IMG/VR virus record: IMGVR_UViG_3300014208_000002
Coordinates: 1 to 64,000 of that record
Length of the DNA: 64,000 nucleotides
Origin: a virus
Taxonomy: Duplodnaviria; Caudoviricetes
Strand: one strand, 5' to 3'
Under the pieces are notes generated by a model. It ran no database searches, was not told the origin of the DNA, and saw nothing but the letters and a program-made list of their open reading frames with translations. A program made the position numbers and the translations under genes. Positions 25,307 to 46,523 of the stretch are shown here, piece by piece (the first letter of the stretch is position 1; each line of letters opens with the position of its first letter).

Positions 25307-27265
25307 ATGCCCGATATTAAAAACACTGGTGGAATAATACTTGAATGTTCTACAAATCCTCAAGCAGGAATGTTATCATATTGTAATGGTCAATATTTTG
25401 GATATGATGGTTCTACTTGTAATAACATAATAACCTGTAAAGATAATGCAACATGCGCCGCACCTGGAATAATACAAATTGGTGCAGGACTATGTTTAGA
25501 TGGGTGTACTGTCTGTCTTGGGCCAACAGGAATAGGGGCGATAACTTGTGATTGCCAAATATTGATTGGGTGTTCTACTACTTGCAATACTAATTCATGC
25601 TATACTATTTATTTGGGGACTAGCGCAGGAAATGGAGCTAGTTTATCTTCAAAGTCTATTTTTATAGGTAGTGGCTCTGGATGTGGAGCGTGCTGTTCAT
25701 GCTATTCAAATTTTATAGGAACAGAGACAGGGTGTGATTCTTTATGTTCTCTTTATTCTAATTTTATAGGATATCAAGCAGGATATCGAGCCTGTGGAGC
25801 AAGTTGTTCTAACTATATAGGTATATATGCGGGAACTGCTACTATAGCCTCTCCGTATGGAAATTATATAGGATATCAAGCAGGACAGAATGCTAATTGT
25901 TCTATCAATTCTAATCTTATAGGAAACGGGGCTGGGTATTCGGTGTGTTGTGTTCAAAGATCAAATATAATAGGATATCAAGCGGGCTATCAGGCTGTAT
26001 TTTCTTTATGCCCAGTTTTTATTGGCACTGGTGCTGGTGGTAATTCTTACTTTACTCATAATAGTATTTTTATAGGAACAGGTGCAGGACAAAATACTTG
26101 TTGTTCCTGTAGTAATGTTTTTTTAGGAAAATGTTCTGGAAGCGGAAATATAAAAGTTTCTTATTCTGTAATGATTGGAGATGCGGTTGGGTATCTGTCT
26201 TGCAATAGCTACAACCAAGTTTTTATTGGTTGTGAAGCAGGAAGAGCGGCTATTTGTTCTAATAACTCAATATTCATAGGGCAAAGAACAGGGTATGCCA
26301 CTTGCTTTAGTCCAAGCTCTGTTTTTATTGGTCTTGAGGCTGGAAATCTTGCTTCTGCTACGGACGGAGGAGTATTTATAGGAACAAGCGCAGGAGATAG
26401 TTCCTGTTATTCTTCTTATGGAGTGTTCTTAGGAAGATTAGCAGGATATAGGTCTTGTTATTCTATTAGCTCTATTATGATGGGAACACAAGCCGGATAT
26501 AATGCCAACTGTGTACGCTGGTCAAATATATTTGGAATTTATGCTGGACAAGATACTTGTAATGTTAGAGATTCAAATTTCATTGGAACGGAGGCTGGTT
26601 GTGGAGCAATTTGTTCAAGCTGTTCAACTTTTATAGGAAGAAGTGCTGGAAAAGGAAATTGTTGTTCTGATTTTTCAAACTTTATTGGCCTAGAGGCAGG
26701 TTATGAATCATGCTGTTCATCCTCTTCTAATTTCTTAGGTAGAGCCGCTGGAAAAAATGCCGCTTATTCTTGTAAGTCTAATTTTATTGGGTACTTTGCG
26801 GGTTATCAAGCTTGCTATTCTTATGATTCTAATTTCATAGGAAACTTCGCTGGGGTAGGGGCGGCTTGTTCTCGTAGCTCTCATTTCATGGGAGAAAATG
26901 CCGGTTATTATGCTTGCTATACTTGTTACTCAGTTTTTATTGGAACAAGTAGTGGTAGCTGTGCCTCTTGTTCTTGTCAATCAATTTTCTTTGGCCATAA
27001 TGCTGGACTAAATGCATGTTGTTCCTCTTGTTCAATTTTTATTGGAGTATGCACTGGTATCAATATTTGTTGCTCCCCCAATACTTTAATGATCGGAAAT
27101 AACACAGGAATTATTCCTCTCCTTTGTGGAAATATGGCAACATGCGCTAATTGCTCATGCTTAACAATAAATGGTCATGTAAGGGCAGTATGTACTTTCT
27201 GTGCGAATACTCTCATTCTGGGTTGTACAGCTTCAACGGTAGCTGGGGCTATATGGGTGGTTTAA
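25307..27265 (+). CDS. Cys-rich tail fibre-like protein with ~17-aa SxFIGxxAG beta-roll repeats
   Basis: About 30 repeats such as SNFIGYQAGYRACGASC; about 65 Cys in 652 aa by manual count. Confidence 0.75.
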   Translation: MPDIKNTGGIILECSTNPQAGMLSYCNGQYFGYDGSTCNNIITCKDNATCAAPGIIQIGAGLCLDGCTVCLGPTGIGAITCDCQILIGCSTTCNTNSCYTIYLGTSAGNGASLSSKSIFIGSGSGCGACCSCYSNFIGTETGCDSLCSLYSNFIGYQAGYRACGASCSNYIGIYAGTATIASPYGNYIGYQAGQNANCSINSNLIGNGAGYSVCCVQRSNIIGYQAGYQAVFSLCPVFIGTGAGGNSYFTHNSIFIGTGAGQNTCCSCSNVFLGKCSGSGNIKVSYSVMIGDAVGYLSCNSYNQVFIGCEAGRAAICSNNSIFIGQRTGYATCFSPSSVFIGLEAGNLASATDGGVFIGTSAGDSSCYSSYGVFLGRLAGYRSCYSISSIMMGTQAGYNANCVRWSNIFGIYAGQDTCNVRDSNFIGTEAGCGAICSSCSTFIGRSAGKGNCCSDFSNFIGLEAGYESCCSSSSNFLGRAAGKNAAYSCKSNFIGYFAGYQACYSYDSNFIGNFAGVGAACSRSSHFMGENAGYYACYTCYSVFIGTSSGSCASCSCQSIFFGHNAGLNACCSSCSIFIGVCTGINICCSPNTLMIGNNTGIIPLLCGNMATCANCSCLTINGHVRAVCTFCANTLILGCTASTVAGAIWVV

Positions 27266-27266
27266 T

Positions 27267-27866: not shown

Positions 27867-27874
27867 GAGATTTC

Positions 27875-28087: not shown

Positions 28088-28093
28088 ATTTCT

Positions 28094-28101
28094 TACTAAT
28101 G
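28094..28101 (+). promoter_or_regulatory. candidate late promoter TACTAATG
   Basis: Intergenic motif variant before ATG 28118. Confidence 0.5.
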
Positions 28102-28117
28102 AGATAGAAGGTATTGG

Positions 28118-28669: not shown

Positions 28670-28691
28670 AGACATTCAAACTCAATAATCC

Positions 28692-28699: not shown

Positions 28700-28732
28700 C
28701 TAAAAGACTCTCATTAAAAACAAGGAAAGCAA

Positions 28733-31700
28733 ATGGCATGGTATGATGGCTATGATGTATATGAGGATTTTGAAGACGCCACTTTAGCCTCTGGTTGGGC
28801 GGAAACTGATACCGGTGGAAATCTTACTATAAATTCTCCTACTCAATACTATGATGGTACTCACTCTCTTGAAATAAATCATACAAATAACACCGCTCAA
28901 TCTAATATAGAATATGATTTTGGTTATGGAACCCCTGTTGATAAAGTTGTTCTTTCTGGTAGGTTTAGACTCCCCTCTCCACAATCTGAATGGGATTATG
29001 GGGTCACAATATTTTATTTTTGGGATACTAGCTATTCCGGGGCTGTAGAACTTCATGCTTTCAGTACGGGCACGCCTACAATTGAAAGTGTTAATGCTAG
29101 TGATAGTTTTGTTTATACGCCGGATACTTGGTATGTTTTTCAAGTTTATTATAATCGTAATGGAGCTTCTTGGATAAAAATATGGAATGCTGACCATTCC
29201 TTATTATTAAAAACATTTACATGGGCGGCAAGTGATGTCCCTATTTACTTAGTCACTGTTGGAGGATATCATGATTGGACAGGACAGTATAGTTATTATG
29301 ACTCTTTAGCATTAGATGCCGGAGATATCCAATCAAGTATAAATCCTTGGGAAACTACTTCTTCTATAGACCTTTTTCAAATAAAAATGAGAAAAGGTCT
29401 ATCCTGTTTTACTGATGACTCATGTGGCATTCGTGATAGTATGTGTTGTTCTGGTTCAGCATTATCTATTGAAGGGGCTTGCTCTTCTCATGCTTATGTA
29501 ACTTTTGCGGATACTTGTACAAACGAAATTAAAGGATATATAAATCTTACTACAGGTGGATTAGTTACTCTTGGGAATATTTGTTCTTTAAATAAAATAA
29601 ATGCTACCGTCATAGAAGCTTCATGCTGTGTATGCTCTTCCTATATAAATGGATCATGCTGTATAACCTCTCCAATACTTTGTGGGCAATGTTGCGTAGT
29701 TACTCCATTATTTTCCTTGATTGGATTAGATAAAAATGGTTGTCCTTTCTGTTCTCAATCAAGTTGGAACCCTACTGAAGGAACAGTAGATATGACAGTG
29801 GATTGTGGAGTTACTATACAGTCTGGACAAGAACTACATTTTTATGGTAAAGCCCTGGAAAATATAAATAATGGTGAAGTAGTAATGTATGGTGGCCCCC
29901 AAGGTGACCATGTAACATTCTGTAAAAGTAATCTTTATGCTACTAATTTTAATCCTGGTTGGATTTTAGGAATTGCTACTCACAATATCTGTGCAAATGA
30001 ATATGGATATGTTACTTGGTATGGCAGAGTTCACGGTGTTTATACATACACTTGGCCGCAAGGAAGCCCACTATATATAAGTGAAACATGCGCTGGCTGT
30101 ATTAGATGCGGCCCACCATCAAGTCCTCATCCAAAATTTAGGTTGGGTATTGTAGAAAAAGAACAAGTAGGGGGGGCAGAAAATGGTGTTTATTATATTA
30201 AGCCACTTCAAAATAGAGCCTTAAATAGACTTGATGATGTTACACTTTGCAACTCTTGTGATTATCAAGTTTTAATGTTTCATGATGATACTTGTTGCAC
30301 TTGGTCAAATTGTTATATGAATCTATGTTGGGCAACAATTGGAGGAGCCACTACCTGTTGCCTTATCTGTGCGGCGGATTTTCAATCAGAACTTGGTGCC
30401 TCATTTAATTGTGTAAACGCCCTATTAAAAAATCCAACAGGTTTTGATAATCCAGCAAACGTAGTAGTTACTTATTGTAGTGACTGTAGACAGATTTATC
30501 TTTCAGGAAGCAACTATCAAGGTTATTGGAATGGTGCGCCTGTAGCCGGGTTAGCCCCTGGCTGGTGTTCATGTCAGCATGATACCCCAAAATGTTCTCC
30601 AATATATTTATATTATAATGGTAGCTTTTATGTTTGGTCAGATTCTTCTTGGTCTTTTGATATGCTTCAAATTGCTTCTGTAGGATTTGACTCATCTTGT
30701 GTTTTTAAATTTGCAGGGCGAGAACCCCATGGGTTTATGGATCATCTCGTTCACCAATCAGAGCATCAAACAATTGGTACATATTTAATGTCAGGAAATG
30801 TTTTCACTTCTTTAAGCTATGTTATAGGGTCTACTACGGCAACGGAAAGAAGACCACTTCTTGACGCAAATTATATTAAAGATGAAGATTTGATTACTTG
30901 TAATGCGGCCCTTACTACAAACGCTTATACTTGGGGTTGGCTTACTGGAGCGAGTAGTGAATTTACTTCTTCTGTAGACAATCCCGAAATTGTTTCAATC
31001 ACTGGTAGTCAACCTAATTGGAATCAGTATACAGGTGGAGCTTGGACACAAACGCCAATACCAGTAGGGTCATATATGACTATATGGGTTATTGCCGTTC
31101 CTACAACTAATGATACTGCTTCTCAAAAATATAGATATGTATTCTTACAAGGTCAATCAAATAGTAGTACTCTAACAATTGAAAGTTCTATTTCATTTAA
31201 TCAATTAAACCTTGGAACATTATCTGGACTTACTCCTGAAATGATTGCTATAGGTAGAATTATTATTCGATACATTGGTGGCAACTGGAGTATTTCTCAA
31301 GTAGACCGAATATCTGGTACACGCTTTACTCAAATAGCAAGTCCATCAGGAAATTTTCTTTCTGCGGTTACAACTGATTCAACTTTGGGGGGATCAGGTA
31401 CAGTTGCTAGTCCACTAACCGCTTGTCTTGCTACTTGTGATGCTCCTGGAATAGTAAGAATCGGAGAGGGATTAGGATTAAATGGATGTTGTATTTATAC
31501 TTGTTTAAAACCCACTGACTTCGCTACTTGTGATGTACCCGGTATTATTCAGGTAGGTGGGGGATTATGTATTACAAATTGTACCCTTAGTTTAAATCCT
31601 AACTGTGGTGGAACAGGTGGGGGAATAGGTTGTATAACAAGTGACTATCAAATACTTATTGGTTGTAATACTGCTTGTCAAGAATGTTCTGATTATTCAA

Positions 31701-32572
31701 ATTATTTTGGATTTTACGCTGGTGGTAGTTCCTGTTGTTCCCCTCTCTCCAATTTTATAGGATACTATGCTGGAGATGGGGCTAACAGTTCTTGTCATAC
31801 AAATTATATAGGTTTTTATTCGGGGCAAAGTGCAGTCTGTTCTGATTATTCAACTATAATAGGCTATTATGCTGGAAGATATGCTTCTTGTTCATCTTAT
31901 TCATTTTTTGTGGGGGTATGTTCAGGACATACTTCGTTCAATTCTCCTTATTCTAATATGATTGGTAATTCTGCTGGATATTGTTCGTGCTATTCATCAT
32001 ATTCTAATATGCTAGGGGCTAGTGCTGGATATAATTCTTGTTGTGTTTCTCATTCTGTTTTTATAGGAAGATCAGCGGGTGCTGTTTCCGATAACTCATG
32101 CTACGCAGTAATGATAGGTACTTGTGCTGGAAATGTATCAAGTAGTTCTTCTTATTCCACCTTTATTGGAACTTGTGCTGGTATTTGTACTATATGCGCC
32201 ATCAACTCTATTTTTATGGGATATGGTGCAGGATTTAATGCTGACTACTCTAATAATTCAATTTTTATAGGAAGAGCTACGGGTAATTATGCATGTTGTT
32301 CTTCTTGTTCTACTTATATAGGTTACTTTGCAGGAGTGTCGGCTTACTGTTCTTCATGTTCAATTTTCATTGGAGTGTGTACCGGATTTAATGTGTGTTC
32401 TTCCCCAAATACTTTAATGATCGGAAATAATACTGGCATAACCCCCCTTCTCTGCGGAATAATGGCTACTACTGCGGTGGCATCTAAACTTACTATAAAT
32501 GGTGCATTAGAACCAATTTATTTAATACTCCCTACTACTTGTGGTGGAGCGAATTCTATATGGCTAGTCTAA
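28733..32572 (+). CDS. mosaic Cys-rich tail fibre: N-terminal ConA/LamG-like domain, Cys-rich modules, C-terminal 17-aa repeats
   Basis: 1279 aa; first ~224 aa Cys-free and W/Y-rich; C-terminal ~370 aa paralogous to 25307..27265. Confidence 0.75.
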   Translation: MAWYDGYDVYEDFEDATLASGWAETDTGGNLTINSPTQYYDGTHSLEINHTNNTAQSNIEYDFGYGTPVDKVVLSGRFRLPSPQSEWDYGVTIFYFWDTSYSGAVELHAFSTGTPTIESVNASDSFVYTPDTWYVFQVYYNRNGASWIKIWNADHSLLLKTFTWAASDVPIYLVTVGGYHDWTGQYSYYDSLALDAGDIQSSINPWETTSSIDLFQIKMRKGLSCFTDDSCGIRDSMCCSGSALSIEGACSSHAYVTFADTCTNEIKGYINLTTGGLVTLGNICSLNKINATVIEASCCVCSSYINGSCCITSPILCGQCCVVTPLFSLIGLDKNGCPFCSQSSWNPTEGTVDMTVDCGVTIQSGQELHFYGKALENINNGEVVMYGGPQGDHVTFCKSNLYATNFNPGWILGIATHNICANEYGYVTWYGRVHGVYTYTWPQGSPLYISETCAGCIRCGPPSSPHPKFRLGIVEKEQVGGAENGVYYIKPLQNRALNRLDDVTLCNSCDYQVLMFHDDTCCTWSNCYMNLCWATIGGATTCCLICAADFQSELGASFNCVNALLKNPTGFDNPANVVVTYCSDCRQIYLSGSNYQGYWNGAPVAGLAPGWCSCQHDTPKCSPIYLYYNGSFYVWSDSSWSFDMLQIASVGFDSSCVFKFAGREPHGFMDHLVHQSEHQTIGTYLMSGNVFTSLSYVIGSTTATERRPLLDANYIKDEDLITCNAALTTNAYTWGWLTGASSEFTSSVDNPEIVSITGSQPNWNQYTGGAWTQTPIPVGSYMTIWVIAVPTTNDTASQKYRYVFLQGQSNSSTLTIESSISFNQLNLGTLSGLTPEMIAIGRIIIRYIGGNWSISQVDRISGTRFTQIASPSGNFLSAVTTDSTLGGSGTVASPLTACLATCDAPGIVRIGEGLGLNGCCIYTCLKPTDFATCDVPGIIQVGGGLCITNCTLSLNPNCGGTGGGIGCITSDYQILIGCNTACQECSDYSNYFGFYAGGSSCCSPLSNFIGYYAGDGANSSCHTNYIGFYSGQSAVCSDYSTIIGYYAGRYASCSSYSFFVGVCSGHTSFNSPYSNMIGNSAGYCSCYSSYSNMLGASAGYNSCCVSHSVFIGRSAGAVSDNSCYAVMIGTCAGNVSSSSSYSTFIGTCAGICTICAINSIFMGYGAGFNADYSNNSIFIGRATGNYACCSSCSTYIGYFAGVSAYCSSCSIFIGVCTGFNVCSSPNTLMIGNNTGITPLLCGIMATTAVASKLTINGALEPIYLILPTTCGGANSIWLV

Positions 32573-33221: not shown

Positions 33222-33232
33222 GGAGAAATAAT

Positions 33233-33907: not shown

Positions 33908-33912
33908 CATTA

Positions 33913-34803
33913 GTGTTAGCTCTACATACCTTTGATACTTTATCCACAACTGGATTGAAGTTTACTGGCTTAAAAAAAGCTGATACTGTTACCATGATTT
34001 TATCGGCGCTCCAATGGCGAAAAATTAACGGGGATATTAAACTCTATTGTGATAAGATATTTTATTCGTGGTTAGATGAAATTGGCTTTACAGATATATA
34101 TTCAGAAATTGATAAAGAACTTTTAGATAAATCCCGTGATCCAAATATAAATATAAGTAAGCAATATGGTTTTTGGGCATCTTCTAAATTCTATGCAATG
34201 AAAGAACAAATATATCCCTTTTTTATGCTTGATATGGATTTGATTGTAAATCTTAATCTAAAATATTATACTGAACAGGATTTTGGTTTAATAGCTTTTG
34301 GACAAGAGCGAATTAGTAATTCTTGGAGAGATATTCCAGTATATCCCCCAAAAGAAAATATATGGACGCCAGACGGATATGTTTTTGATGAGAGATTAGA
34401 TTGGGAAACTCCTCCAGTAAATTGTGCGCTTACTTATTTTGAAGATTTGGAATTAAAAGATGAATATATAAATGAAGCGTTTAGATTTATGAAAAATAAT
34501 ACCCTCCCTGATTATTCTAATAATAGCAAATTTCCTCCAATGATGATGTGTTATATTGAACAGAGATTTTTACCTATGTTAGCTAAACTTCGTGGTGTAA
34601 AATATAGTACATTTCTTTCAGGATATCTTGGTGGAACTTCAGTAGAAGCTTTAAGCAGTACTCGCTTTTTTCATTTATGGTGTGCCAAACATATTCCTAC
34701 TCTTAGAATAAGAATGTATAAATCATTGATAAAGGATTTAGAAAAGCGATATCCAATATTTTACAATAGGTATCTACAAATTGAAAACAAACTTCAAGAT
34801 TGA
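33913..34803 (+). CDS. putative GT-A-fold glycosyltransferase-like protein (DUF6734-like)
   Basis: LSALQWRK...IKLYCD, FWASSKFY, MLDMDL (DxD), YIEQRFL, FFHLW; GTG start. Confidence 0.6.
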   Translation: MLALHTFDTLSTTGLKFTGLKKADTVTMILSALQWRKINGDIKLYCDKIFYSWLDEIGFTDIYSEIDKELLDKSRDPNINISKQYGFWASSKFYAMKEQIYPFFMLDMDLIVNLNLKYYTEQDFGLIAFGQERISNSWRDIPVYPPKENIWTPDGYVFDERLDWETPPVNCALTYFEDLELKDEYINEAFRFMKNNTLPDYSNNSKFPPMMMCYIEQRFLPMLAKLRGVKYSTFLSGYLGGTSVEALSSTRFFHLWCAKHIPTLRIRMYKSLIKDLEKRYPIFYNRYLQIENKLQD

Positions 34804-35704
34804 AAAAACTGGAATATCTGGCATCGCTCGATTACGAAATGAGGAAGAATATCTCCCTATTATTCTTGATAGATTCCTTCCATTCTTAGATGAAATTATT
34901 CTTGTTTGTGATAAAGGCAATACAGATAATACTCCTGATATTTGTGAAGACTATAGAAGGCGTTATCCAGACATAATTAAAACCTATTATTATCCTTATG
35001 AGGTATATCCTCCATTGTCCAAAGAAACTTTATTTTGTAAAGAAGCTGATCCAAGAGCTTTATGGAACTATAATAATTGGGCATTTAGTAAAGCTACTCG
35101 GTCATTCTCTATGAAGGTAGATGGCGACTTAATCCCTCGGGCTGATCTAATGAATTATAAAGACCTTATTTGGGATATAGTGAAAAAAAGTTATATTGTA
35201 GAATTACACGGTGCAAATTTAATTATTGATAATGATAAATTAAAAGTTTTTTCTCCTCCTGAATCTAACATTATTCTTTGTGGAATGAATGACCATTTTT
35301 TAAGACATAATGATATTTCTAATTTCTTTGGTAGACAAAAATCAAGCTCATGTGAAGTGTGGTGTGTTCCTTATCTTCCAAAAAAGTTTAATAAAGGATT
35401 CCCCTATTTCTTTTTTTATTATCATATGCGTTGGTGCAAAAAGGATATTTGCTCTAATCGAGGCAATATGGGAATTTCTAATTCTTATTATGACCATTAT
35501 GCTTATTATAAAGATTCATTAAAAATAGATGTGCCTGAAGCAAAAATAGATTGGGAAAGCTGGATTATCAGCTATAAAAATATTGTTGATACATACCGAG
35601 AAAACTACTATAATATAGATATAGGTATTCCTGATCCAAATATAGATACTGAGCTAATTAAATATATGAAGGATAAAAATCTATATAATGAAGCCAAATT
35701 ATAG
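34781..35704 (+). CDS. glycosyltransferase, GT2-like / Campylobacter CgtA-like, paralog 1
   Basis: ISGIARLRNEEEYL...TDNT...YPYEV...LWNYNNW...KVDGD. Confidence 0.75.
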   Translation: MKTNFKIEKTGISGIARLRNEEEYLPIILDRFLPFLDEIILVCDKGNTDNTPDICEDYRRRYPDIIKTYYYPYEVYPPLSKETLFCKEADPRALWNYNNWAFSKATRSFSMKVDGDLIPRADLMNYKDLIWDIVKKSYIVELHGANLIIDNDKLKVFSPPESNIILCGMNDHFLRHNDISNFFGRQKSSSCEVWCVPYLPKKFNKGFPYFFFYYHMRWCKKDICSNRGNMGISNSYYDHYAYYKDSLKIDVPEAKIDWESWIISYKNIVDTYRENYYNIDIGIPDPNIDTELIKYMKDKNLYNEAKL

Positions 35705-37399: not shown

Positions 37400-37407
37400 A
37401 ATAAAGC

Positions 37408-37415
37408 TACTAACA
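37408..37415 (+). promoter_or_regulatory. candidate late promoter variant (C)TACTAACA
   Basis: Intergenic, upstream of ATG 37449. Confidence 0.55.
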
Positions 37416-37448
37416 TAAAACTAATAGAATATAAGGGAGAAATAAAAT

Positions 37449-38948
37449 ATGGACTACTATTTTAATAATTTATTTGGTGACGGGATTGGCTGGAACTTTG
37501 GCGTATCTACTTGGATTAAGAACACAAAAAAAGCATTAGAGTCTTTTGGTCTTAAAAATAAAATAGATGCAAAGTTAGCACTTTCTATTGGACTCCCCCG
37601 AGCGTTTAACCCAATACCTTCCCGATTTAATGTTTTCATGACCCTCTTTGAAACAGAGGATTTATTTGATGATGACTATGAAAAGTTAAATAAAGCCGAT
37701 GTAATTATTGTTCCTTGTCAAGCTAACCAAAAAGTATTAGAAAGAAACTTGAGAAAAGACATTCCCGTTTATGTAGCTATTGGGGGATTTGATCCTAAAA
37801 TCTTCAAATATAAAAAGAGAGAGAAAATTGACAAAGAGTTTATTTTCCTCTATGTCGGTGCGCTCAATCCCCGAAAGGGTTTTGACTTGGCGATTAAGGC
37901 GTTTAATAAATCAAAAGGATTATATCCTAAAGCAAAACTTTATATCAAGACGACTGAGGAAGGTAAAGATGGATTTGAATATAATTCCTTTGGAGATATT
38001 ATTTATGATTATCGAATACTCTCTACCAAAGAATTAGTGGATATTTACTATAAATCCCATTGTCTACTCCTCCCAAGCCACGGTGAAGGAATTGGTCTTA
38101 CTGCATTAGAAGCCGCCGCCACAGGTCTTCCTGTTATTCATACTGCATATGGTGGTACAGCAGAGTTTTTAGGTTTTCAAAATTCTCTTCCATTAAAATA
38201 TAGTCTTGAAGTAACTGAACTAACTTACCCCGGAGAACCAAAAAGAGTAAGAGCAACTAAGTGGGCAGAAGTCCACATTGATGAACTTATTTCTAAAATG
38301 GATTATGTATATGATAGATATGCACAAATAATTAAAGACTCTAAACCTTATTTATTAAATAATATAAAGCAATTCTCTTGGAAAAATTACGGAAAGAATC
38401 TTATTGCTATATTCAATAAATATAAAGAGGATATAGAACGAGCCATCCTCAAAAAAATACTTAATCTTGGTTGTGGAAATAGAAAATATCCAGGAACAGT
38501 CGGAGTGGATATTCGTAAAGATGTTGGCGCAGATATTGTATGGGACTTATCTAAGACTCCTTATAAGTTTGCTAAGGATGAATCATTTGATGAAGTAATT
38601 ATAATAAATACTCTTGAACACTTACTTGATCCCCTTCCCTTCATGAAAGAGGCTTATAGGATTTTGAAAACTGATGGACTACTTCATATACAGGTTCCTT
38701 ACTGGCGTTCAGAAAACTTTTTTATTGATCCAACTCATCATCATGCGTATCATGAACTGTCTATGGATTTTTTTGATCGGACTACTTTTCACGGAGGACT
38801 AAATAATTATATTCCCGTTAATTTCCGTATACTAAATAGACAGGTACTAGAGACTGGAGACATTTATTTTATTCTTCAAAAGAAATGTTATAATGATTTA
38901 GGAACTTGTGCTTGTTTAAATGGGGGTGGCTGTGACTGCAAAAAATAA
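37449..38948 (+). CDS. GT4-family glycosyltransferase fused to a class I SAM methyltransferase domain
   Basis: FLYVGALNPRKGFDL, PSHGEGIGLTALEAAATGLPVI; then ILNLGCG, GVDI, NTLEHL, GLLHIQVPY. Confidence 0.85.
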   Translation: MDYYFNNLFGDGIGWNFGVSTWIKNTKKALESFGLKNKIDAKLALSIGLPRAFNPIPSRFNVFMTLFETEDLFDDDYEKLNKADVIIVPCQANQKVLERNLRKDIPVYVAIGGFDPKIFKYKKREKIDKEFIFLYVGALNPRKGFDLAIKAFNKSKGLYPKAKLYIKTTEEGKDGFEYNSFGDIIYDYRILSTKELVDIYYKSHCLLLPSHGEGIGLTALEAAATGLPVIHTAYGGTAEFLGFQNSLPLKYSLEVTELTYPGEPKRVRATKWAEVHIDELISKMDYVYDRYAQIIKDSKPYLLNNIKQFSWKNYGKNLIAIFNKYKEDIERAILKKILNLGCGNRKYPGTVGVDIRKDVGADIVWDLSKTPYKFAKDESFDEVIIINTLEHLLDPLPFMKEAYRILKTDGLLHIQVPYWRSENFFIDPTHHHAYHELSMDFFDRTTFHGGLNNYIPVNFRILNRQVLETGDIYFILQKKCYNDLGTCACLNGGGCDCKK

Positions 38949-40917
38949 TCGTGCTTTTATCACGGGAATTTCAGGACAGGACGGAAGTTATCTAGCTGAA
39001 CTTCTTTTATCTAAAGGGTATGAAGTAGCTGGGTTTATTCGTCGAAGCTCTAATCCCAACACTGCCTCTCGTATATCTCATCTAATAAATAAGATAAAAT
39101 TATATCAAGGTGATCTACTAGATATGAATTCTTTATCTATTGCAATAAGGGATTTTCAACCAACAGAAATTTATAATCTTGCGGCACAGAGCTTTGTAGG
39201 TATGAGTTGGGAACAGCCTTTTTACACCTCTGAAGTAAATGCACTTGGGGCATTAAATATTCTTTCTGTAATAAAAGATGTAAATAAAAATATTCGATTT
39301 TACCAAGCGAGTACATCTGAATTATTTGGAAAGACAACCTCTTCTATACAAGATGAGTTTACACCTTTTACTCCACGAAGTCCTTATGGTATTGCAAAAC
39401 TATTTGCTCATTGGACAACAGTAAACTATCGAGAGTCTTATGGTATGTATGCTTGTAGTGGAATATTATTTAATCATGAAAGCCCTAGAAGAGGTTTAGA
39501 GTTTATTACTAAGAAAATAACAAACCATATTCAAGAGTTTGGAAATTCAAAACCTTTACTGATTGGTAATATGTCCGCTCGACGAGATTGGGGTTATGCA
39601 AAAGAATATTGTATAAATACAGATGTTCCTATTTTAACTCTTTCTGGATGGAAATATTGTGATGAAGTAAAAGAGGGAGATAGTATAATTAACTTTGACC
39701 CCATAAATAATAATTTATCTACTGATATAATAAATAAAATAATAGTAAAAGAGGATGAAAGAAATAGAATACATTTAAGTGGAAGGTCTTTTGATCTTAC
39801 TTGTACGCCTGAACATAGAATTTATTATCAAAAAAAGAGTAAAAATAGCAAGGGCGGCTGGTCAGATTGGAAAGTTATATCTGCTCAAGATTTCGCTGGT
39901 ATGTTACAAGATAAGGTAACTCGAACAAAATATGATTATAGATTACCTCACTTTCAAGATTATAATGCTAAGGAAAATAATAAATGGTCTGATGAAGAAA
40001 TTTATCTTTTAGGGGCTTTATTAGCAGAAGGGTGTATTTCAGAAAAAAATAGAATAACATCTGTTTCTATTTCTCAATCTTTTATTAAAAATGAACCTAC
40101 TCATAAAAAGATAAAGGATTGCCTAGATAGATTATGTTTAATTTATCATACTAGGAATACTAACTCTGGTGTTACAGAGTGGGTGTTAACCTCAGAGTCT
40201 AGTAAAAAAATATTAGAATTATTTGATTCTAATGATATTCATATAGCCCCTAACTGGATATATAGTTTATCAAGCAGACAAGCAAATATTTTATTTAATT
40301 CTTTAATGGACTGTGATGGACATTGGGGAAGCCTAACTTATATTTCCAAACGATACCAATTGGCAGTAGCGTTTCAAACTATTGCTATATTGGCTGGATA
40401 TGCTTCAACAAAGATACATCAGAGGAAGTGTGGTGTTTATAGTTCTACAGTAATATCAAAAAGAAAAAAATATCAGTATATTACTGACATAGAACTTATA
40501 GAACCAGTAACACCTACAGTTTGGTGTGTAAATACTAACAATGGAACAATTATATCCAGGGATAATGACAAAATTTCTATTTCTGGTAATTGTGAAGCCA
40601 TGTGGTTAATGCTTCAACAGGACAAGCCGAATGATTTTGTTATTGCTACAGGAGAAACGCATACAGTAAAAGAGTTTATTATTCAAGCATATAAATACAT
40701 AGGGGCTGAAATTATATTTGAAGGGCAAGGGTTAGATGAAATTGGGATAGATAATAATTCTCAAAGAACTCTTGTTAAAATTGATCCTCAATTCTATCGG
40801 CCCGCAGAGGTAGATTATCTTAGAGGAGATTCTTCTAAAGCCAAGAAGATACTTAATTGGGAACCAAAAGTAAAATTTGAACAGCTTGTAGAAATTATGA
40901 TGGAGGACGAAGCATAA
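38920..40917 (+). CDS. gmd: GDP-mannose 4,6-dehydratase interrupted by an intein
   Basis: AFITGISGQDGSYLAE, YNLAAQSFV, FYQASTSELFG, PRSPYGIAKL, FNHESPRRG, RDWGYAKEY...EAMWLMLQQDKP. Confidence 0.95.
   Translation: MGVAVTAKNNRAFITGISGQDGSYLAELLLSKGYEVAGFIRRSSNPNTASRISHLINKIKLYQGDLLDMNSLSIAIRDFQPTEIYNLAAQSFVGMSWEQPFYTSEVNALGALNILSVIKDVNKNIRFYQASTSELFGKTTSSIQDEFTPFTPRSPYGIAKLFAHWTTVNYRESYGMYACSGILFNHESPRRGLEFITKKITNHIQEFGNSKPLLIGNMSARRDWGYAKEYCINTDVPILTLSGWKYCDEVKEGDSIINFDPINNNLSTDIINKIIVKEDERNRIHLSGRSFDLTCTPEHRIYYQKKSKNSKGGWSDWKVISAQDFAGMLQDKVTRTKYDYRLPHFQDYNAKENNKWSDEEIYLLGALLAEGCISEKNRITSVSISQSFIKNEPTHKKIKDCLDRLCLIYHTRNTNSGVTEWVLTSESSKKILELFDSNDIHIAPNWIYSLSSRQANILFNSLMDCDGHWGSLTYISKRYQLAVAFQTIAILAGYASTKIHQRKCGVYSSTVISKRKKYQYITDIELIEPVTPTVWCVNTNNGTIISRDNDKISISGNCEAMWLMLQQDKPNDFVIATGETHTVKEFIIQAYKYIGAEIIFEGQGLDEIGIDNNSQRTLVKIDPQFYRPAEVDYLRGDSSKAKKILNWEPKVKFEQLVEIMMEDEA
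39610..40590 (+). mobile_element. 327-aa intein with LAGLIDADG homing endonuclease in gmd
   Basis: Starts CINTDVPIL, block B TCTPEHRIY, LGALLAEG and SLMDCDG motifs, ends VWCVNT...ISGN followed by +1 Cys; removal restores AKEY-CEAMWLM. Confidence 0.9.
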
Positions 40918-40918
40918 T

Positions 40919-41344
40919 ATGATAAAAGTAGCAATATCAGGTGGATTTGATCCCCTTCATGTAGGGCATATTAAATATATTCAAAATGCAATAGCCCTTG
41001 GCGATCATTTAATTGTTATTCTGAATGGTGATTCTTTTCTTATGCGAAAGAAAGGATTTATTTTCATGCCCGCAGAGGAACGAGTAGAGATTATTCGAGC
41101 AATTAGGGGAGTAGATGAGGTATGTTTATTTAATTCAGAAAAAGATGATGTTTGTGATGCTTTAGCAATGTTCAAACCCAATATTTTTGCAAAGGGTGGG
41201 GATCGTACTGGACCAGAGAATATTCCTGAATGGGATTTTTGTCAAAAAAATCATATTGATGTTGTAGTAGGAGTTGGAGGAGGAAAAATTCAGTCCTCTC
41301 AATGGCTTACTAAGAGTATTGAATTAAAGGAGAAAAATAAATGA
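40919..41344 (+). CDS. cytidylyltransferase-like nucleotidyltransferase (HxGH family)
   Basis: SGGFDPLHVGH, LNGD, ERVEII, FAKGGDR. Confidence 0.85.
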   Translation: MIKVAISGGFDPLHVGHIKYIQNAIALGDHLIVILNGDSFLMRKKGFIFMPAEERVEIIRAIRGVDEVCLFNSEKDDVCDALAMFKPNIFAKGGDRTGPENIPEWDFCQKNHIDVVVGVGGGKIQSSQWLTKSIELKEKNK

Positions 41345-41685
41345 TTTATTCTTCCGGGGATTTATTTGATAAATGCACAATTCTTGATATTAAGCTACGC
41401 AAGGGGCTTCATGTAGAGAATGAGTTTCAAGTGGTTTATAACGAAGTAAAAGAATTATTAAAAAAATATCCAAAGACAAAGGCTATTTACAAGAAACTTT
41501 TTGAATCCAATCTTGAACAGTATGATTTGGAGGATTTAATACGAACTGAGAAAGACCTTGCTGTAGTTGGAAATATTGCTCTTAATATTCGTAGTCATAA
41601 TGATGCAAGAGTGCTATTAAAAAATAAGATAAATGAAATTACACAGGAAGCTTTTAAGGAAGTTAAAGATTATAAGAGAAGTTAG
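41341..41685 (+). CDS. conserved phage protein (DUF6165-like)
   Basis: SSGDLFDKCTILDIK...N...DLED.IR...NDARVLLKNKIN. Confidence 0.6.
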   Translation: MIYSSGDLFDKCTILDIKLRKGLHVENEFQVVYNEVKELLKKYPKTKAIYKKLFESNLEQYDLEDLIRTEKDLAVVGNIALNIRSHNDARVLLKNKINEITQEAFKEVKDYKRS

Positions 41686-41688
41686 GTC

Positions 41689-41696
41689 TACTAACA
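41689..41696 (+). promoter_or_regulatory. candidate late promoter variant (C)TACTAACA
   Basis: Intergenic, upstream of ATG 41726. Confidence 0.55.
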
Positions 41697-41725
41697 TAAC
41701 GAATCAAATATAAGGAGATTTTTAT

Positions 41726-42643
41726 ATGGCAAGTAATACAACGGTCGTCCTCAGCGGGGGAATTGGAAAATGTGTAGCGTTCACAGCGGCAATCCCAAAG
41801 ATGGTAAAGAAATATGGTCCTATCACAATTATGTCCCCTTGGCCCGATTTGTTTACAGACCTTGAAGGTGTGTATCGTTCTATTAGTTTCGGCGTGGAAT
41901 ATGGCTACGAGTACTTTCAAGGAAAGAATCGCCTTTCACCCGAACCCTACAACCGCAATGACTTTTTTCAAAAGAAGATTCATTTGATTGACGGCTTCAT
42001 GAAAGAGTGCGGATTAGAAGAAAACTATGATTCATTAACTGATCTTCCTCTTGCCCCGTCCTTTCTTGATATAAATTCAAAGAATAAAATTGATGCTATT
42101 CGCCAAAATGGAAAGTATATCGTAGTACAGTTTATGGGTGGAAATCAGGCTCAAAATGGTAAGATGAATGATAAGTTTATGGCAAAGGATTACCCTCCTC
42201 AGCTTATTGAAAATTTGATTATTGCTATTGGAAAGAAATATGGTAGTAAAATCCAGATTGTCAATTATGGGCTTCCTTTTGAATTTAATATTGCAAATAC
42301 CATTTCTGCGGCAGACTTGCCCTATACTGCGGCGGCTTATTTATTGAAGAACTCTGAAACTTTTATTGCAATAGACTCTAATCTTCAGCATTTCTCTGCT
42401 TGCAAAGGAGTAGAGAAGAAGGGCATAGTCCTTTGGGCGGCAACGGACCCAATAAACTTTGGATATCCTCATAATATAAACCTCTCGGCAGAGTGCCCAT
42501 ATAATGACCTTCATTGCAACAGACCCTATTTTCAGCATACCTCTGATATAGTTGGTAAGGGCATTCCTTGGTCTTGTAAGACAAAAGATTGTCTAAATAT
42601 TTCCCCAGAGAAAGTTCTCTCCGAATTAGAAAAGATTATTTAA
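41726..42643 (+). CDS. GT9-like (heptosyltransferase-like) glycosyltransferase
   Basis: SGGIGKCVAFTAAIP; IAIDSNLQHFSA...GIVLWAATDP..FGYPHN. Confidence 0.7.
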   Translation: MASNTTVVLSGGIGKCVAFTAAIPKMVKKYGPITIMSPWPDLFTDLEGVYRSISFGVEYGYEYFQGKNRLSPEPYNRNDFFQKKIHLIDGFMKECGLEENYDSLTDLPLAPSFLDINSKNKIDAIRQNGKYIVVQFMGGNQAQNGKMNDKFMAKDYPPQLIENLIIAIGKKYGSKIQIVNYGLPFEFNIANTISAADLPYTAAAYLLKNSETFIAIDSNLQHFSACKGVEKKGIVLWAATDPINFGYPHNINLSAECPYNDLHCNRPYFQHTSDIVGKGIPWSCKTKDCLNISPEKVLSELEKII

Positions 42644-42660
42644 TAAGTTCTCTTAAATAT

Positions 42661-42704
42661 AAAGACTCGGAAGCTACTAATACAGTAGAATCCGAGTCTT
42701 TTTT
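42661..42704 (+). terminator. long hairpin plus T6 tract with TACTAATA (42675-42682) at its apex
   Basis: AAAGACTCGGA...TCCGAGTCTTT perfect 11-bp arms, inner CTACT-aatac-AGTAG stem. Confidence 0.7.
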
Positions 42705-42719
42705 ATTAGGGAAGATATA

Positions 42720-45425
42720 ATGGGAACAACTAATTACGGTACACAGACTACTACTTTTAAGTATAAGCAAGCGGCGTTATCCTCTACTTTCAATGCTTTA
42801 AATGATAGCCTTATTCCTACTGGGATATATTCCGGTGGGTTGCTATCCCGTGTATCTGATGGTTCTATACAAGTAGCCCCCCTTACTTGTTATATAAAAG
42901 ATACTACACCCAATTCCAATATTTCTCGAAGAGTACAGACAACATCGGCAGTTAGTATTGTTGGATTTACTTCCACCGATTGCTATTGTGTTTTAAGATA
43001 CTCTTGGGTTGCTTCTGAAACAGATTATATGGATATTTTAGCAGTAGACTATAATACTCTTTTTGCTACTGAAACTACATTAAATCAAGGTTATTTACTT
43101 TTAGGAAAAGCAATTTATGAAGGCGCTACTATGCTTTCTTATTTTGATTATACTTTCCGATCAGATGCCTCATTACAAGAGATAGAAGACGAAAAAAATA
43201 GTTTTTATGTAAAACCCTATAATGATCCTACTATACGCCGTATCTATGTTTATCCAGGAAAAGCCGTAGTAAATGGAAAATATATTGATTTTTCGGGAGA
43301 CACTTATCCCTCTGCCCCTAGTACCTTCGATAACACTACTCTTGGACGAATAGATGTAATTTATGTAGACGCCACGGGAACAATAAAAAAAGTTTCTTCA
43401 ACTGACCAAACATTAACAATAACGTATCCTTTAAATTTTAATACCTTTGAATCAGAAAATCCTGGAGCTATCCCTGATTTCCCAACAGACGGAATGGTTG
43501 TCGCTATTATTATTCGTGGTTTAACCCGAAATACAATTGAGGGAAGAGATATAATTCAAATTGAATATGAACGAAATAGTTTTACTGGCGCAGAAAATGA
43601 TATTACTTTTAAGGGCTGTGCTATTTTTGAACAAAATGTTCAAGTAGCTGGAAATCTTCATGTTCAAGGAAATATGATTATTGATGAAGGAACAATTACA
43701 GAATATGAAGATAATATAATAACACTCAATAAGCCCCCTACAGGATGTGCTTCACTCTATTCTACTTCAGGAATTGATTTTTATCAGGGTGGTCCAGCGT
43801 GTTGTACAACAGGATTTGGGCCTAATGATGCTCAGTTTCTATATGACTGTACTGTAGGATATTTCAAAGCGGGGGTAATGGATTGTTTTACTCCTCATCT
43901 TCAAAGAGTGGTAACCCAACAGCTTATTCCACAAGTATATGGTGTTCCTTTCTGGAGCGGAACAAAAGTTCCTAACTCAGATAGCATATTAGAATATGAC
44001 CAATTTTTTACTTTTAATAACGCTTGCAGTGCGAATAAAATTCTAAATATTGGAAATGTTACTTGTTCTGCCCCTGCTGATGTAAGAATATCCGGTGGAA
44101 TGACTATTGGACAATGCGCTCCAGGCGACTTTGATGTAAATATAAATCAATTTATTGTAAATGAAACTTCTGTCTTTAATAATAATGTAACAATAAAATG
44201 TGGATGCTCTATTCTATACCGAGAGCATGGGGTTCCTGAAGAATCTTTGGACACCCGCTATCTAAGAGCTTCAGCTTCAACTTATAATGTTGTTACACTA
44301 AATGATTTTTATATTGGAAATGGCTCAACTTCACAAAAAAGATTATTTGTCTATTTGAATGATGGTAGTGGTTGTGTTAATGCTACTCCTTTAGCACTTG
44401 AAGATGCATTCCTTTTTAAGAAATGTTGGGGGAGTGCTTTACCTGGATATATTCAACAATCTATTGAAACAAGTCTAATTATTTGCTGTGGTAAAACTCT
44501 TACTTATATGGGTGATGAATTAGATCAAAGGCATGTTAGAACCAACTATACTGCTATTGAGGGAAATACCCCGGCATTGGCTGTTACTATGTGGGGTGAC
44601 TATACCATTAAACAGGCGGGAAGTAATAATGCTTGTTTAAATATTCAGGGTACTCTTCGGTCTGGATTGTATAATACTTCTTGTTATCATTTACTTGCTA
44701 CTGAGGGTGGAACATTTACTTGGAATGGATGTAATATTATTTATGAAAATGGCTGTTCAGGAGCTTGTTGGAACGCCTTTGTTTCTCATGCTCAATATGC
44801 TTTACAAACTTGTGGAAACTCTACTACAGCCTCTAATTTTAATACTAATCGTTGCGCTCAAATAAATGGTGTAGGTGGAAGCTGTGCTTATTCTATCTGT
44901 GCTACAGGAGACTATGTTTGGGATATTTCCGCAGTAAAAATTAACCTTGCTACTTGCTCACAATATCTATATAGTTGCACTACACTAATTCCTCATGCAA
45001 AAATAGTTACAACAGATGGAACGGGAGGAACAACAAACTTAGCTACTACTCCTGTAGGAAATGCAGACATGGTAGATGGATATCACGCTAGTAGTAGTGC
45101 TACAGGTAATACCGTTGCTGTTAGAGATGGGGGAGGAATACTTCATGCTTATGGATTCAATGTTGTTTCCAAGAGAGCTTTGAAGGAAAATATAAAAGTA
45201 TTTAATAAATCTGCCCTTGGGTTAGTAAAAACGGTTGAAGTAGTAGAATACAATTATATTCTTGATCCAGAAAAATCATCTAAAATAGGGTTTATTGCAG
45301 ATGATACCAGAGAAGAATTTTCCACTTCCTGTCATAATACAATGGATGTTACTTCTTCCATTGGAATTTTATTAAAGGCCGTTCAAGAACTTGATAAAAA
45401 GATTTCTTGTTTGGAGAATAAGTAA
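42720..45425 (+). CDS. long tail fibre with C-terminal peptidase S74 intramolecular chaperone; Cys-rich distal two-thirds
   Basis: N-terminus paralogous to 21913 (FKYK...LIPTGIYS; GRIDVIYVD); NADMVDGYHAS; VSKRALKENIK...IGFIADD...AVQEL. Confidence 0.85.
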   Translation: MGTTNYGTQTTTFKYKQAALSSTFNALNDSLIPTGIYSGGLLSRVSDGSIQVAPLTCYIKDTTPNSNISRRVQTTSAVSIVGFTSTDCYCVLRYSWVASETDYMDILAVDYNTLFATETTLNQGYLLLGKAIYEGATMLSYFDYTFRSDASLQEIEDEKNSFYVKPYNDPTIRRIYVYPGKAVVNGKYIDFSGDTYPSAPSTFDNTTLGRIDVIYVDATGTIKKVSSTDQTLTITYPLNFNTFESENPGAIPDFPTDGMVVAIIIRGLTRNTIEGRDIIQIEYERNSFTGAENDITFKGCAIFEQNVQVAGNLHVQGNMIIDEGTITEYEDNIITLNKPPTGCASLYSTSGIDFYQGGPACCTTGFGPNDAQFLYDCTVGYFKAGVMDCFTPHLQRVVTQQLIPQVYGVPFWSGTKVPNSDSILEYDQFFTFNNACSANKILNIGNVTCSAPADVRISGGMTIGQCAPGDFDVNINQFIVNETSVFNNNVTIKCGCSILYREHGVPEESLDTRYLRASASTYNVVTLNDFYIGNGSTSQKRLFVYLNDGSGCVNATPLALEDAFLFKKCWGSALPGYIQQSIETSLIICCGKTLTYMGDELDQRHVRTNYTAIEGNTPALAVTMWGDYTIKQAGSNNACLNIQGTLRSGLYNTSCYHLLATEGGTFTWNGCNIIYENGCSGACWNAFVSHAQYALQTCGNSTTASNFNTNRCAQINGVGGSCAYSICATGDYVWDISAVKINLATCSQYLYSCTTLIPHAKIVTTDGTGGTTNLATTPVGNADMVDGYHASSSATGNTVAVRDGGGILHAYGFNVVSKRALKENIKVFNKSALGLVKTVEVVEYNYILDPEKSSKIGFIADDTREEFSTSCHNTMDVTSSIGILLKAVQELDKKISCLENK

Positions 45426-46523
45426 ATGAGTGGTTTTACTAATAATGGTATAGCAATTGAATCTTGCATCTGTCTCGCTCCTTCTGTTTTTTCATCTTGT
45501 CAGATTAGATTTTGTCAATTAGGTGTTGACTTAGGAAGACAATTTGTTTTAACCAATACTGCTCCTTATATAGGGCATCGTCCTAGTTTTCAAGCTAATT
45601 TAGGTTTTACCTCTTGTGGTGTAGCCGGAGGAGATTTAGGGTGGTGTGTTTCACATTGGCAAAGATCAGTTACTACAGGTGTCTCTTTAAGTAGATATAA
45701 AGAATATTCTACGCCTATGAATATTCAATACTCGTGTGACCTCTATGGATGTAGGTCTGTAGTAACAGTAGTTCTTATTGGCGGCGGCGGGGGTGGTGGA
45801 GGCGGTAAACAGACTTTATCAGATGACGGCGGCGGGGGCGGGGGTGGTGGAGGAACTACAGTTATAGCTCAATCTGTTTTTATTCCTAATTTGAGTATAA
45901 TATGTGTAGGTGCTGGTGGGGCGAGAGGGCTTGTAGGCTATAATGGTAGTAATGGTAGTAGTTCTTATATTCAGAATATAAGCTATGATTTATCAGGAAT
46001 TGGTTGTAGCGGTGGATATTATTATAATTTTTGTGTAGTAGCTCCCGGTGGTAGAGGTGGGGGTGTAGGAGGAGATGCGGGAAGTTGTCCTGGAAATGGG
46101 GGAGGAGCAGGAATTGTATCAGTAACTAATGGAGCTTGCTTTGCTGGAGCAACAGGTTGGACAAGTGGAGGAGCAGGAGGAGCGGGGACTAAAGAGAGTA
46201 GTCCCTCTCATCCTAATTCTTGTGGAATGCAAACGGGGCCTAGTATAACATTAGTAGACTACTACGGCAATAGTATAAGTACTTCTGCTAACTCCGGGAG
46301 AGCATTATTTGAAATAAGCGAAGCTGGAAATGGAGGACCGGGGGGGTCATCTACTTTCTGTAAGGGAGGAAGAGAGGGCTATAACTACGCAGGAGTACCA
46401 GCGGTAAATGGTAGTCCAGGGTGTTTTGGTTCGGGTGGTGGAGGAGGACATGGTGATTGGAATGAAGGAGAGTCTTCTAATGGTGGCAATGGTGGGGATG
46501 GTTATATAATTATTTATTGGTAA
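45426..46523 (+). CDS. glycine-rich fibre tip/adhesin (T2 gp38-like arrangement)
   Basis: VVLIGGGGGGGGG, VGAGGARG, GSGGGGG, GGNGGDGYIIIYW; directly after the S74 fibre. Confidence 0.7.
   Translation: MSGFTNNGIAIESCICLAPSVFSSCQIRFCQLGVDLGRQFVLTNTAPYIGHRPSFQANLGFTSCGVAGGDLGWCVSHWQRSVTTGVSLSRYKEYSTPMNIQYSCDLYGCRSVVTVVLIGGGGGGGGGKQTLSDDGGGGGGGGGTTVIAQSVFIPNLSIICVGAGGARGLVGYNGSNGSSSYIQNISYDLSGIGCSGGYYYNFCVVAPGGRGGGVGGDAGSCPGNGGGAGIVSVTNGACFAGATGWTSGGAGGAGTKESSPSHPNSCGMQTGPSITLVDYYGNSISTSANSGRALFEISEAGNGGPGGSSTFCKGGREGYNYAGVPAVNGSPGCFGSGGGGGHGDWNEGESSNGGNGGDGYIIIYW

Follow-up and report, generated by a model that had tools for sequence, protein, structure and literature searches.

The S-glycosyltransferases of glycocins, SunS and ThuS, are GT2 enzymes of the GT-A fold that place a sugar onto cysteine (Cys) thiols of ribosomal peptides; they need a leader peptide and take small secreted peptides as substrates. 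TibC is a WaaC-like GT-B enzyme that uses ADP-heptose to hyperglycosylate a beta-helix adhesin (PMC4358343), and enzymes encoded by mycobacteriophages are reported to glycosylate the virions of these phages (Freeman et al. 2023, PMC10527164, as cited in PMC12619734). Here we describe a tail-fibre region of the phage record IMGVR_UViG_3300014208_000002 in which Cys-rich fibre genes enclose a block of nine genes (33913-42643; Table 1), the last of them coding for a heptosyltransferase-like protein that we call GT9-like. The DNA analysed, referred to as the window, is the first 64 kb of this 200,726-bp IMG/VR record, which has direct terminal repeats. We give an even chance to the view that the block is expressed late and serves to glycosylate the tail fibres of the phage itself, and the evidence that carries this reading is a tie between GT9-like genes, repeat fibres and fibre Cys that is found across many viral contigs.

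GT9-like genes beside Cys-rich repeat fibres

The GT9-like gene has relatives on no fewer than 555 contigs of IMG/VR. In the 78 loci that we analysed, a fibre built of 17-residue repeats was present in 64 and lay directly adjacent to the GT9-like gene in 52, nearly always just upstream. As a control, 80 loci holding relatives of the block's radical SAM enzyme contained a repeat fibre in 3 cases and an adjacent one in 0. The repeat fibres at GT9-like loci have the consensus N-T-A-V-G-x-x-A-L-x-x-N-T-T-G-x-x and a median Cys content of 2.24%, and in several of those that we read the C-terminus is a coiled coil resembling the one in fibres with an S74 domain. The N-T-T-G segment recurs in each rung of the GT9-associated fibres (L093-L172; L-numbers, such as L003-L172, denote viral contigs or loci found as relatives in IMG/VR), with N in 80%, T in 89% and T in 84% of rungs, and has the form of an N-x-T sequon, dozens per fibre.

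An independent sample was assembled from loci chosen by the fibre motif SNF[IF]GxxAG[YN] alone and not by the enzyme. A full-length fibre alignment was too divergent to serve as query, and an in-phase alignment of eight repeats was used. Of the fibres obtained, 68 were distinct and had 1.5 kb or more of sequence downstream. All seven fibres followed by a GT9-like gene contain 2.6-5.0% Cys, and all 61 fibres that lack such a gene contain less than 1.5%, with a median of 0.10% (Fisher p = 1e-9). Two further Cys-rich fibres have no GT9-like gene, and in both the sequence ends at a contig edge. Identity among the seven enzymes, which sort into three groups, is 45-61% from one group to another; compared with the enzyme of the window it drops to 23-26%, which suggests that the pairing of fibre and enzyme is old or recurrent. 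At the least, the fibre Cys co-evolve with the GT9-like enzyme. A first-pass annotation of this DNA had linked Cys-rich fibres to the cluster as a whole; the co-occurrence holds for the GT9-like gene but not for the radical SAM gene, whose relatives have a Cys-rich neighbour at only 2 of 80 loci (L016 and L017). A full-text literature search found no paper describing a pairing of GT9 enzymes with Cys-rich fibres.

In the phage itself the three fibres are Cys-rich, as had been noticed at the outset, when set against the genome-wide median of 0.77% (53 open reading frames (ORFs) of at least 300 aa). The tail and baseplate proteins encoded upstream contain 0-0.7% Cys, and the large Cys-rich ORFs all lie in the fibre module except for two 317-aa proteins (50980 and 120794). 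Fibre 1 belongs to a family with 474 homologues in the database, and the best 120 of these have a median of 0.3% Cys, with 103 below 1%. The rungs of fibres 1 and 2 share the consensus xSNFIGxxAGxxA(T)(N)Ax. In this phage's fibres Cys takes the place of the conserved Thr14 and Asn15 in 47% and 49% of rungs, and it is also found at the variable rung positions 1, 8 and 17; in the sampled fibres it occupies the variable positions 8, 11-12 and 17-1 in both repeat subtypes. Judging from the variability of the repeat, we read these positions as outward corners. AlphaFold2 folds fibre 1 with confidence into a beta-solenoid in which each 17 residues contribute one set of strands; the predicted local distance difference test score (pLDDT) exceeds 90 over about residues 100-580. 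The Foldseek match of the fibre model to the hyperglycosylated TibA (4q1q; E 1e-4, TM ~0.1) is a generic solenoid match, and we keep it as a lead only.

The tentative assignment of the enzyme to GT9 comes from the family more than from the single protein. The window protein scores 16.3 bits against PF01075, below the cut-off of 22, while 16 of 22 aligned family members match this model at E <=0.01, the best at 1.5e-6. The best PDB profile matches of the family are WaaC and WaaF (weak, E 0.06) and cover the C-terminal nucleotide-sugar-binding region, where the invariant D217-S218-x-x-Q221-H222 aligns with WaaC residues 244-294. The Atlas neighbours of the protein are viral GT9 clusters at 0.98, and one source labels a relative as 'ADP-heptose:LPS heptosyltransferase' (LPS, lipopolysaccharide). 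A four-Cys motif at the C-terminus of the window protein is not invariant in the family.

The nine-gene block and its setting

The gene content of the block was established by profile searches, which bore out eight of the nine enzyme labels given in the first-pass annotation. The label that fell was 'DUF6165-like' for the 114-aa ORF, whose only Pfam match is DUF6664 at E 0.09; in the relatives seen, this ORF adjoins or is near the GT9-like gene. The pair labelled 'CgtA-like' was matched as GT2-like, with scores of 20.7 and 24.3 bits where the cut-off is 23.3, and with a weak PDB match to a GT2 protein. Their N-terminal segments are nearly identical, and each gene overlaps its upstream neighbour by about 20 nt. 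The GDP-mannose 4,6-dehydratase (Gmd) reaches 423.4 bits in two stretches divided by an intein, above the TIGR01472 equivalog cut-off of 415, and this label therefore stands despite an insert of 327 residues. A second short-chain dehydrogenase/reductase (SDR) or a DegT aminotransferase that could partner Gmd was not found in the genome, so the fate of its 4-keto sugar is possibly host-dependent. Taken together, the matches support the view of the block as a glycan-building and glycan-tailoring set inside a late tail-fibre module.

Table 1. Positions of the features of the fibre region, counted from the first base of the window.
Feature	Position	Strand	Description
Fibre 1	25307..27265	+	652 aa, 65 Cys (10.0%); ~30 rungs of 17-residue beta-solenoid repeat (xSNFIGxxAGxxACCSx)
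Two small ORFs after fibre 1, 199 and 183 aa	27267..28669	+	No Pfam or PHROG match
Fibre 2	28733..32572	+	1279 aa, 77 Cys (6.0%); 17-residue repeat in C-terminal third
Two ORFs, 210 and 224 aa	32589..33907	+	210-aa product (32589-33221) with 9 Cys (4.3%)
DUF6734 protein	33913..34803	+	PF20508, 34.1 bits, E 2.6e-8, above cut-off
GT2-like glycosyltransferases, a tandem pair of paralogues (307 and 297 aa)	34781..36581	+	PF00535, E 4e-4 and 3e-5
Small radical SAM (S-adenosylmethionine) enzyme, Radical_SAM + SPASM, 278 aa	36563..37399	+	Closest solved structure BtrN; sole radical SAM gene in genome
Late-promoter-like motif variant CTACTAACATAA	37407..37418	+	Motif scan
GT4 glycosyltransferase-class-I SAM methyltransferase fusion	37449..38948	+	Profile matches; orthologues 67% (L090) and 36% (L092) identical
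Gmd, intein-interrupted, 665 aa	38920..40917	+	TIGR01472; only SDR in genome
Putative intein with LAGLIDADG-type endonuclease inside Gmd	39610..40590	+	Residues 231-557, 327 aa; Cys1, C-terminal Asn, Cys+1
Cytidylyl/adenylyltransferase-family nucleotidyltransferase	40919..41344	+	Best specific models RfaE domain II (heptose-1-phosphate adenylyltransferase) and TagD, both below cut-off
Conserved 114-aa protein	41341..41685	+	Orthologues 55-69% (L090, L091) and 48% (L092) identical; no significant family match
Second copy of CTACTAACATAA	41688..41699	+	Motif scan
GT9-like (heptosyltransferase-like) glycosyltransferase, proposed fibre modifier	41726..42643	+	Single copy in genome
Terminator-like strong hairpin + U-run at cluster end, after GT9-like gene	42661..42707	+	-28.6 kcal/mol, z -7.35
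Fibre 3	42720..45425	+	901 aa, 31 Cys (3.4%); C-terminal S74 intramolecular chaperone domain
Glycine-rich-domain tail protein	45426..46523	+	365 aa, 16 Cys (4.4%); PF21722, phrog_863

The insert in Gmd has the sequence marks of an intein. It begins with CINTDVP and ends with ISGN followed by CEAMW, thus with Cys at its first position, Asn at its last and a nucleophile at the +1 position, and it sits in-frame just before the conserved (V)EAMW segment. The Gmd orthologues of L090, L091 and L092 lack it. The segment has a weak LAGLIDADG_3 match (E 0.006), and a phmmer search of it against the PDB gave no match.

For the radical SAM enzyme the first-pass annotation had suggested thioether crosslinking of Cys as in sactipeptides and ranthipeptides, and this suggestion is not supported. 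A relatives search with the single protein as query found none; relatives of its family are present on 387 or more viral contigs in IMG/VR, of which the best 80 loci were analysed. PF04055 is matched above cut-off, and the three Cys of CX3CX2C (C19, C23 and C26) do not vary across 33 family members. The C-terminal part holds only five invariant Cys (C216, C236, C237, C269 and C272) in the same members, and the PF13186 (SPASM) match covers only positions 5-46 of 67. When the family profile is compared with the PDB, BtrN comes first (hmmsearch E 4e-6), followed by GDGT-MAS and DesII, and no peptide maturase appears at E <=1. The AlphaFold2 model (pLDDT 88.7) gives the same picture, with a Foldseek match to BtrN at E 1e-8 and an end-to-end alignment to this enzyme of similar size (Z 18.1, root-mean-square deviation 3.4, 218 of 246 residues, 20% identity), while SuiB, CteB, SkfB, EpeE and anSME reach Z <=14.8, leaving BtrN 3.3 Z units ahead of the rest. 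The model and BtrN align from their first residues, whereas in CteB and SuiB the aligned part begins only at residues 91-103; residue 19 of the 278-aa protein already opens the cluster motif, and an N-terminal leader-recognition domain (RRE) is absent. Fusion to an FkbM methyltransferase recurs in the family, and DUF6445 and glycosyltransferase domains flank its members. Since BtrN is the best match, there is no room for a leader domain and only five C-terminal Cys are invariant, we infer that the enzyme is a sugar-tailoring one.

Some of the radical SAM loci deserve mention in their own right. A widespread module beside fibre genes, on at least 387 IMG/VR contigs and recurrent in the best 80 loci (L006-L085; for example L006 7693-11409, L037 1095-4899 and L045 6018-10714), combines the radical SAM enzyme with a 325-aa protein, a TPR-FkbM methyltransferase that either adjoins the radical SAM domain or, often, is fused with it, and DUF6445 with or without GT2, GT17 or GT25 domains. 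In L016 (3074-6932) and L017 (6672-10483) a sulfotransferase, a DUF7936 protein, a GT9-like enzyme and a carbamoyltransferase (NodU/CmcH type) lie by a repeat fibre with 5% Cys; the methyltransferase-radical SAM module is nearby, and together these would make a very elaborate glycan-tailoring set. In the T4-like marine phage L003 (2772-10858; also L004, L005 and L038) a fibre of 1044 aa with collagen repeats and an S74 domain precedes Laminin_G_3 proteins, a 2OG-Fe(II) oxygenase, two unassigned proteins and the radical SAM enzyme; this looks like a set for fibre hydroxylation or modification.

Relatives of the block itself suggest that it is made of two halves. The order GT4-methyltransferase, Gmd, nucleotidyltransferase, 114-aa ORF, GT9-like gene and S74 fibre is kept in L090, with identities of 67%, 65%, 61%, 55% and 70% for the five enzyme-block products in turn, and subsets of it are found in L091, L092 and one contig known from its gene list only. 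In L091 the GT9-like protein is 84% identical, and the S74 fibre is 75% identical and contains 3.2% Cys; in L092 the GT9-like protein is 58% identical, and upstream of the GT4-methyltransferase gene there is a piece of a fibre that contains 5.8% Cys. Other genes stand in L090 in place of the half with the radical SAM, GT2 and DUF6734 genes. The right half of the block is thus a conserved unit and the left half a swappable cassette. In wider samples, no more than 2 or 3 of 87 loci have the other enzymes of the window together with the GT9-like gene. The minimal unit is the fibre plus the GT9-like gene, presumably drawing on sugar nucleotides of the host.

The setting of the block is that of a myovirus. 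PHROG matches place the tail module on the + strand with the sheath at 3182, the tube at 6225, the tape measure at 7972, the hub at 12651 and the wedge at 17427, and the fibre region and then an amidase at 47511 follow. All genes of the cluster are on this structural strand, as first described. The motif TACTAATA lies 10-40 nt 5' of the genes for the sheath and the tube, of an ORF in the baseplate region (17025) and of fibre genes. The same candidate late promoter had been placed within the cluster at 37408 and 41689; sites are indeed present there, but they carry CTACTAACATAA, a one-base variant of TACTAATA that occurs genome-wide only at 37407 and 41688. The TACTAATA copy of fibre 3 sits in the loop of the hairpin that ends the cluster, so termination and late initiation may be coupled there. 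Scans for sigma-70 promoters and simple terminators gave counts at chance level (88 against 86, and 10 against 10.3). A GIY-YIG-type homing endonuclease gene with its own TACTAATA lies just 5' of the tail sheath (2402-3178; phrog_314, E 4e-37). The phage has no near relative among GenBank phages, where a megablast search with 33000-43000 gave no match, and a relatives search with the ORF at 21913-25278 as query also found none.

Proposed mechanism and rival explanations

From its context and family, the GT9-like enzyme probably puts sugars on the fibres. We propose that it would transfer a sugar to the exposed corners of the 17-residue beta-solenoid rungs, as TibC and Aah add heptose to TibA and AIDA-I, which are beta-helical adhesins, and this sugar could be heptose, activated by the neighbouring RfaE-II-like nucleotidyltransferase. 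The acceptor, and here we are less certain, may be the Cys that mark the fibres, giving an S-linked sugar. The other genes of the cluster would provide donors, lengthen the glycan and decorate it: Gmd would yield GDP-4-keto-6-deoxymannose, the GT4-methyltransferase fusion, the two GT2 enzymes and the DUF6734 protein would add and methylate further sugars, and the BtrN-like radical SAM enzyme would modify a sugar, for example by oxidation of a hydroxyl, and not a peptide. More specifically, the GT9-like enzyme might S-glycosylate the surface Cys of these beta-solenoid fibres on rung after rung, which we hold to be possible but doubtful. S-glycosylation of the fibre Cys had been raised before with the GT2 enzymes as candidates; the idea survives as a possibility, but the candidate enzyme is now the GT9-like one.

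Several observations weigh against glycosylation of the fibres by this enzyme. The GT9-like gene of the window is not adjacent to the two repeat fibres but 9 kb downstream of fibre 2, and it lies just upstream of an S74 fibre that has no repeat. In L090, where the same five enzymes are present, the S74 fibre (41% identical to fibre 3) contains 0.2% Cys, so the gene set does not need every neighbouring fibre to be Cys-rich. Besides the PF01075 score below cut-off, no NCBIfam model matches the window protein at E <=0.01, the BAHT model included, and TibC is not among the PDB profile matches at E <=10. The conserved Thr and Asn of the rungs (N-T-T-G) could equally be the acceptors or could be merely structural. 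The association counts come from contigs that are not independent in phylogeny, and ORFs were called and repeats detected by crude means. The support as a whole consists of gene context and sequence, and sugar genes embedded among fibre genes have been published as modifiers of the host O-antigen (PMC7029224).

This last point leads to the explanation that the cluster alters the lipopolysaccharide or capsule of the host during infection, for example to block superinfection or to keep progeny from sticking to debris, and lies among fibre genes only because the region is a hypervariable 'host recognition cluster'. Pelagimyophages and cyanomyophages have clusters that mix fibre, glycosyltransferase, rfaE-type and radical SAM genes, for which O-chain modification was proposed (PMC7029224); GT9, RfaE-II and Gmd are classic lipopolysaccharide functions, and the left half of our cluster is swapped in relatives. 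What this explanation leaves unaccounted for is the GT9-like gene directly beside a repeat fibre at 52 of 78 loci and the prediction of Cys-richness by that gene (7 of 7 against 0 of 61). The cluster also holds no membrane protein, flippase or polymerase, none of its proteins has a transmembrane-like segment, and late-type motifs would be an odd timing for exclusion. We therefore regard remodelling of the host envelope as rather unlikely. The Cys might instead serve the fibre itself, stiffening it outside the cell by disulfide or metal-thiolate cross-links, with an indirect link to the GT9-like enzyme that would glycosylate Thr, Ser or Asn of the same fibres or act as a fibre-specific assembly factor. 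Disulfide-rich beta-solenoids are known, the insect antifreeze proteins among them. The N-T-T-G segments, 80-89% conserved in the GT9-associated fibres, put O- or N-acceptors on offer, and fibre 3 and the glycine-rich protein are Cys-rich although they lack the repeat. Yet Cys at the same position in adjacent rungs show no excess (z 0.43, 0.18 and -1.16), and a design of disulfide staples thus finds no support in stacking across rungs. A genome search found no Erv1-type sulfhydryl oxidase or glutaredoxin and a single thioredoxin (106917-107207), far from the cluster, and structural Cys give no reason for the all-or-none coupling with an enzyme. On this balance, we consider a purely structural role of the Cys to be quite unlikely.

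Two further explanations fare worse. The first-pass annotation put forward a modification like that of peptides made on ribosomes and modified after translation (RiPPs), in which the radical SAM/SPASM enzyme forms sactionine or ranthionine thioether cross-links on the Cys-rich fibres. It can point to the Pfam Radical_SAM and SPASM matches, to CteB, SuiB and SkfB among the structural matches (Z ~14.5) and to relatives of the enzyme near a 5%-Cys fibre in L016 and L017. But BtrN is the best match both by profile and by structure, a leader-binding domain is missing, the invariant C-terminal Cys are only five, 78 of the 80 related loci have no Cys-rich neighbour, and the family often has FkbM fusions and has DUF6445/glycosyltransferase flanks, which leaves this already disfavoured model very improbable. 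That the sugars go onto bases of the phage DNA seems to us hardly credible. Phage glycosyltransferases often glycosylate DNA (reviewed in PMC12619734), and one distant radical SAM relative lies in a cluster with a T4-type alpha-glucosyltransferase (AGT) gene. However, the genome has no thymidylate-synthase-family hydroxymethylase, which upholds the earlier claim that the cluster builds or tailors a glycan rather than modifying DNA; the cluster has late-type motifs and lies within the fibre module, and the adjacency of GT9-like genes to fibres would be left unexplained.

Implications and comparison with known systems

We know of no S-linked glycosylation of a virus structural protein and of no GT9-type S-glycosyltransferase, and if S-glycosylation of the fibres is true it would be the first of each. 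It would then be present in hundreds of uncultured phage lineages, with this phage as an extreme case in which Cys reaches 10%, the rung Thr and Asn are replaced and a nine-gene pathway extends and methylates the glycan. Tail fibres determine which bacteria a phage infects. If many environmental phages sugar-coat their fibres, receptor binding, stability and antigenicity would not be predictable from the fibre sequence alone, and fibres expressed without their partner enzyme could misbehave. The near-perfect coupling of surface Cys to one enzyme family offers a simple and testable route to a possibly new modification, an S-linked sugar on a virion. The tie between GT9-like genes and fibres also suggests that some of the 'LPS genes' in the host-recognition clusters of marine phages may be genes of virion maturation and not of host manipulation.

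None of the known systems matches this locus in full. In contrast to SunS and ThuS, the candidate enzyme here is GT9-like and its target would be a large structural protein. BtrN (PDB 4M7T), the twitch-domain radical SAM dehydrogenase of butirosin biosynthesis, acts on an aminocyclitol and is a one-cluster twitch enzyme, while a full SPASM domain has seven Cys and two auxiliary clusters; unlike BtrN, the phage family has FkbM methyltransferase fusions and TPR segments and is located in fibre modules. The inner-core lipopolysaccharide heptosyltransferases WaaC and WaaF (CAZy GT9, PF01075) are the best family and PDB profile matches of the GT9-like enzyme, but weak ones, and the gene context here is a fibre gene and not a core-oligosaccharide operon.

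Among phages, the host recognition cluster of pelagimyophages and cyanomyophages (Zaragoza-Solas et al. 2020, PMC7029224) likewise has fibre genes amid glycosyltransferases, genes of rfaE type and radical SAM cassettes that have been exchanged among close relatives; that paper proposes modification of the host O-chain and makes no link between GT9-like genes, repeat fibres and Cys. The mycobacteriophages, as described in PMC10527164 (cited in PMC12619734), provide a precedent for phage glycosyltransferases, joined in some by methyltransferases, that decorate the phage's own structural proteins. The targets described there are C-termini of capsid and tail-tube proteins with O-linked sugars, whereas here they would be fibres, with other enzyme families and hosts.

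The TibC/Aah enzymes with their substrates TibA and AIDA-I (PMC4358343) offer another parallel. The GT9-like protein has no detectable sequence membership in the TibC/Aah (BAHT) family, and its candidate substrate differs from TibA and AIDA-I in being a phage tail fibre with 17-residue rungs that is marked by Cys and not by Ser. Both arrangements nevertheless encode a heptosyltransferase or heptosyltransferase-like protein beside a long beta-helical repeat protein, as is the case at 52 of the 78 GT9-like loci, and in line with the use of ADP-heptose by TibC, a heptose-1-phosphate-adenylyltransferase-like gene lies two genes upstream of the GT9-like gene in the window.

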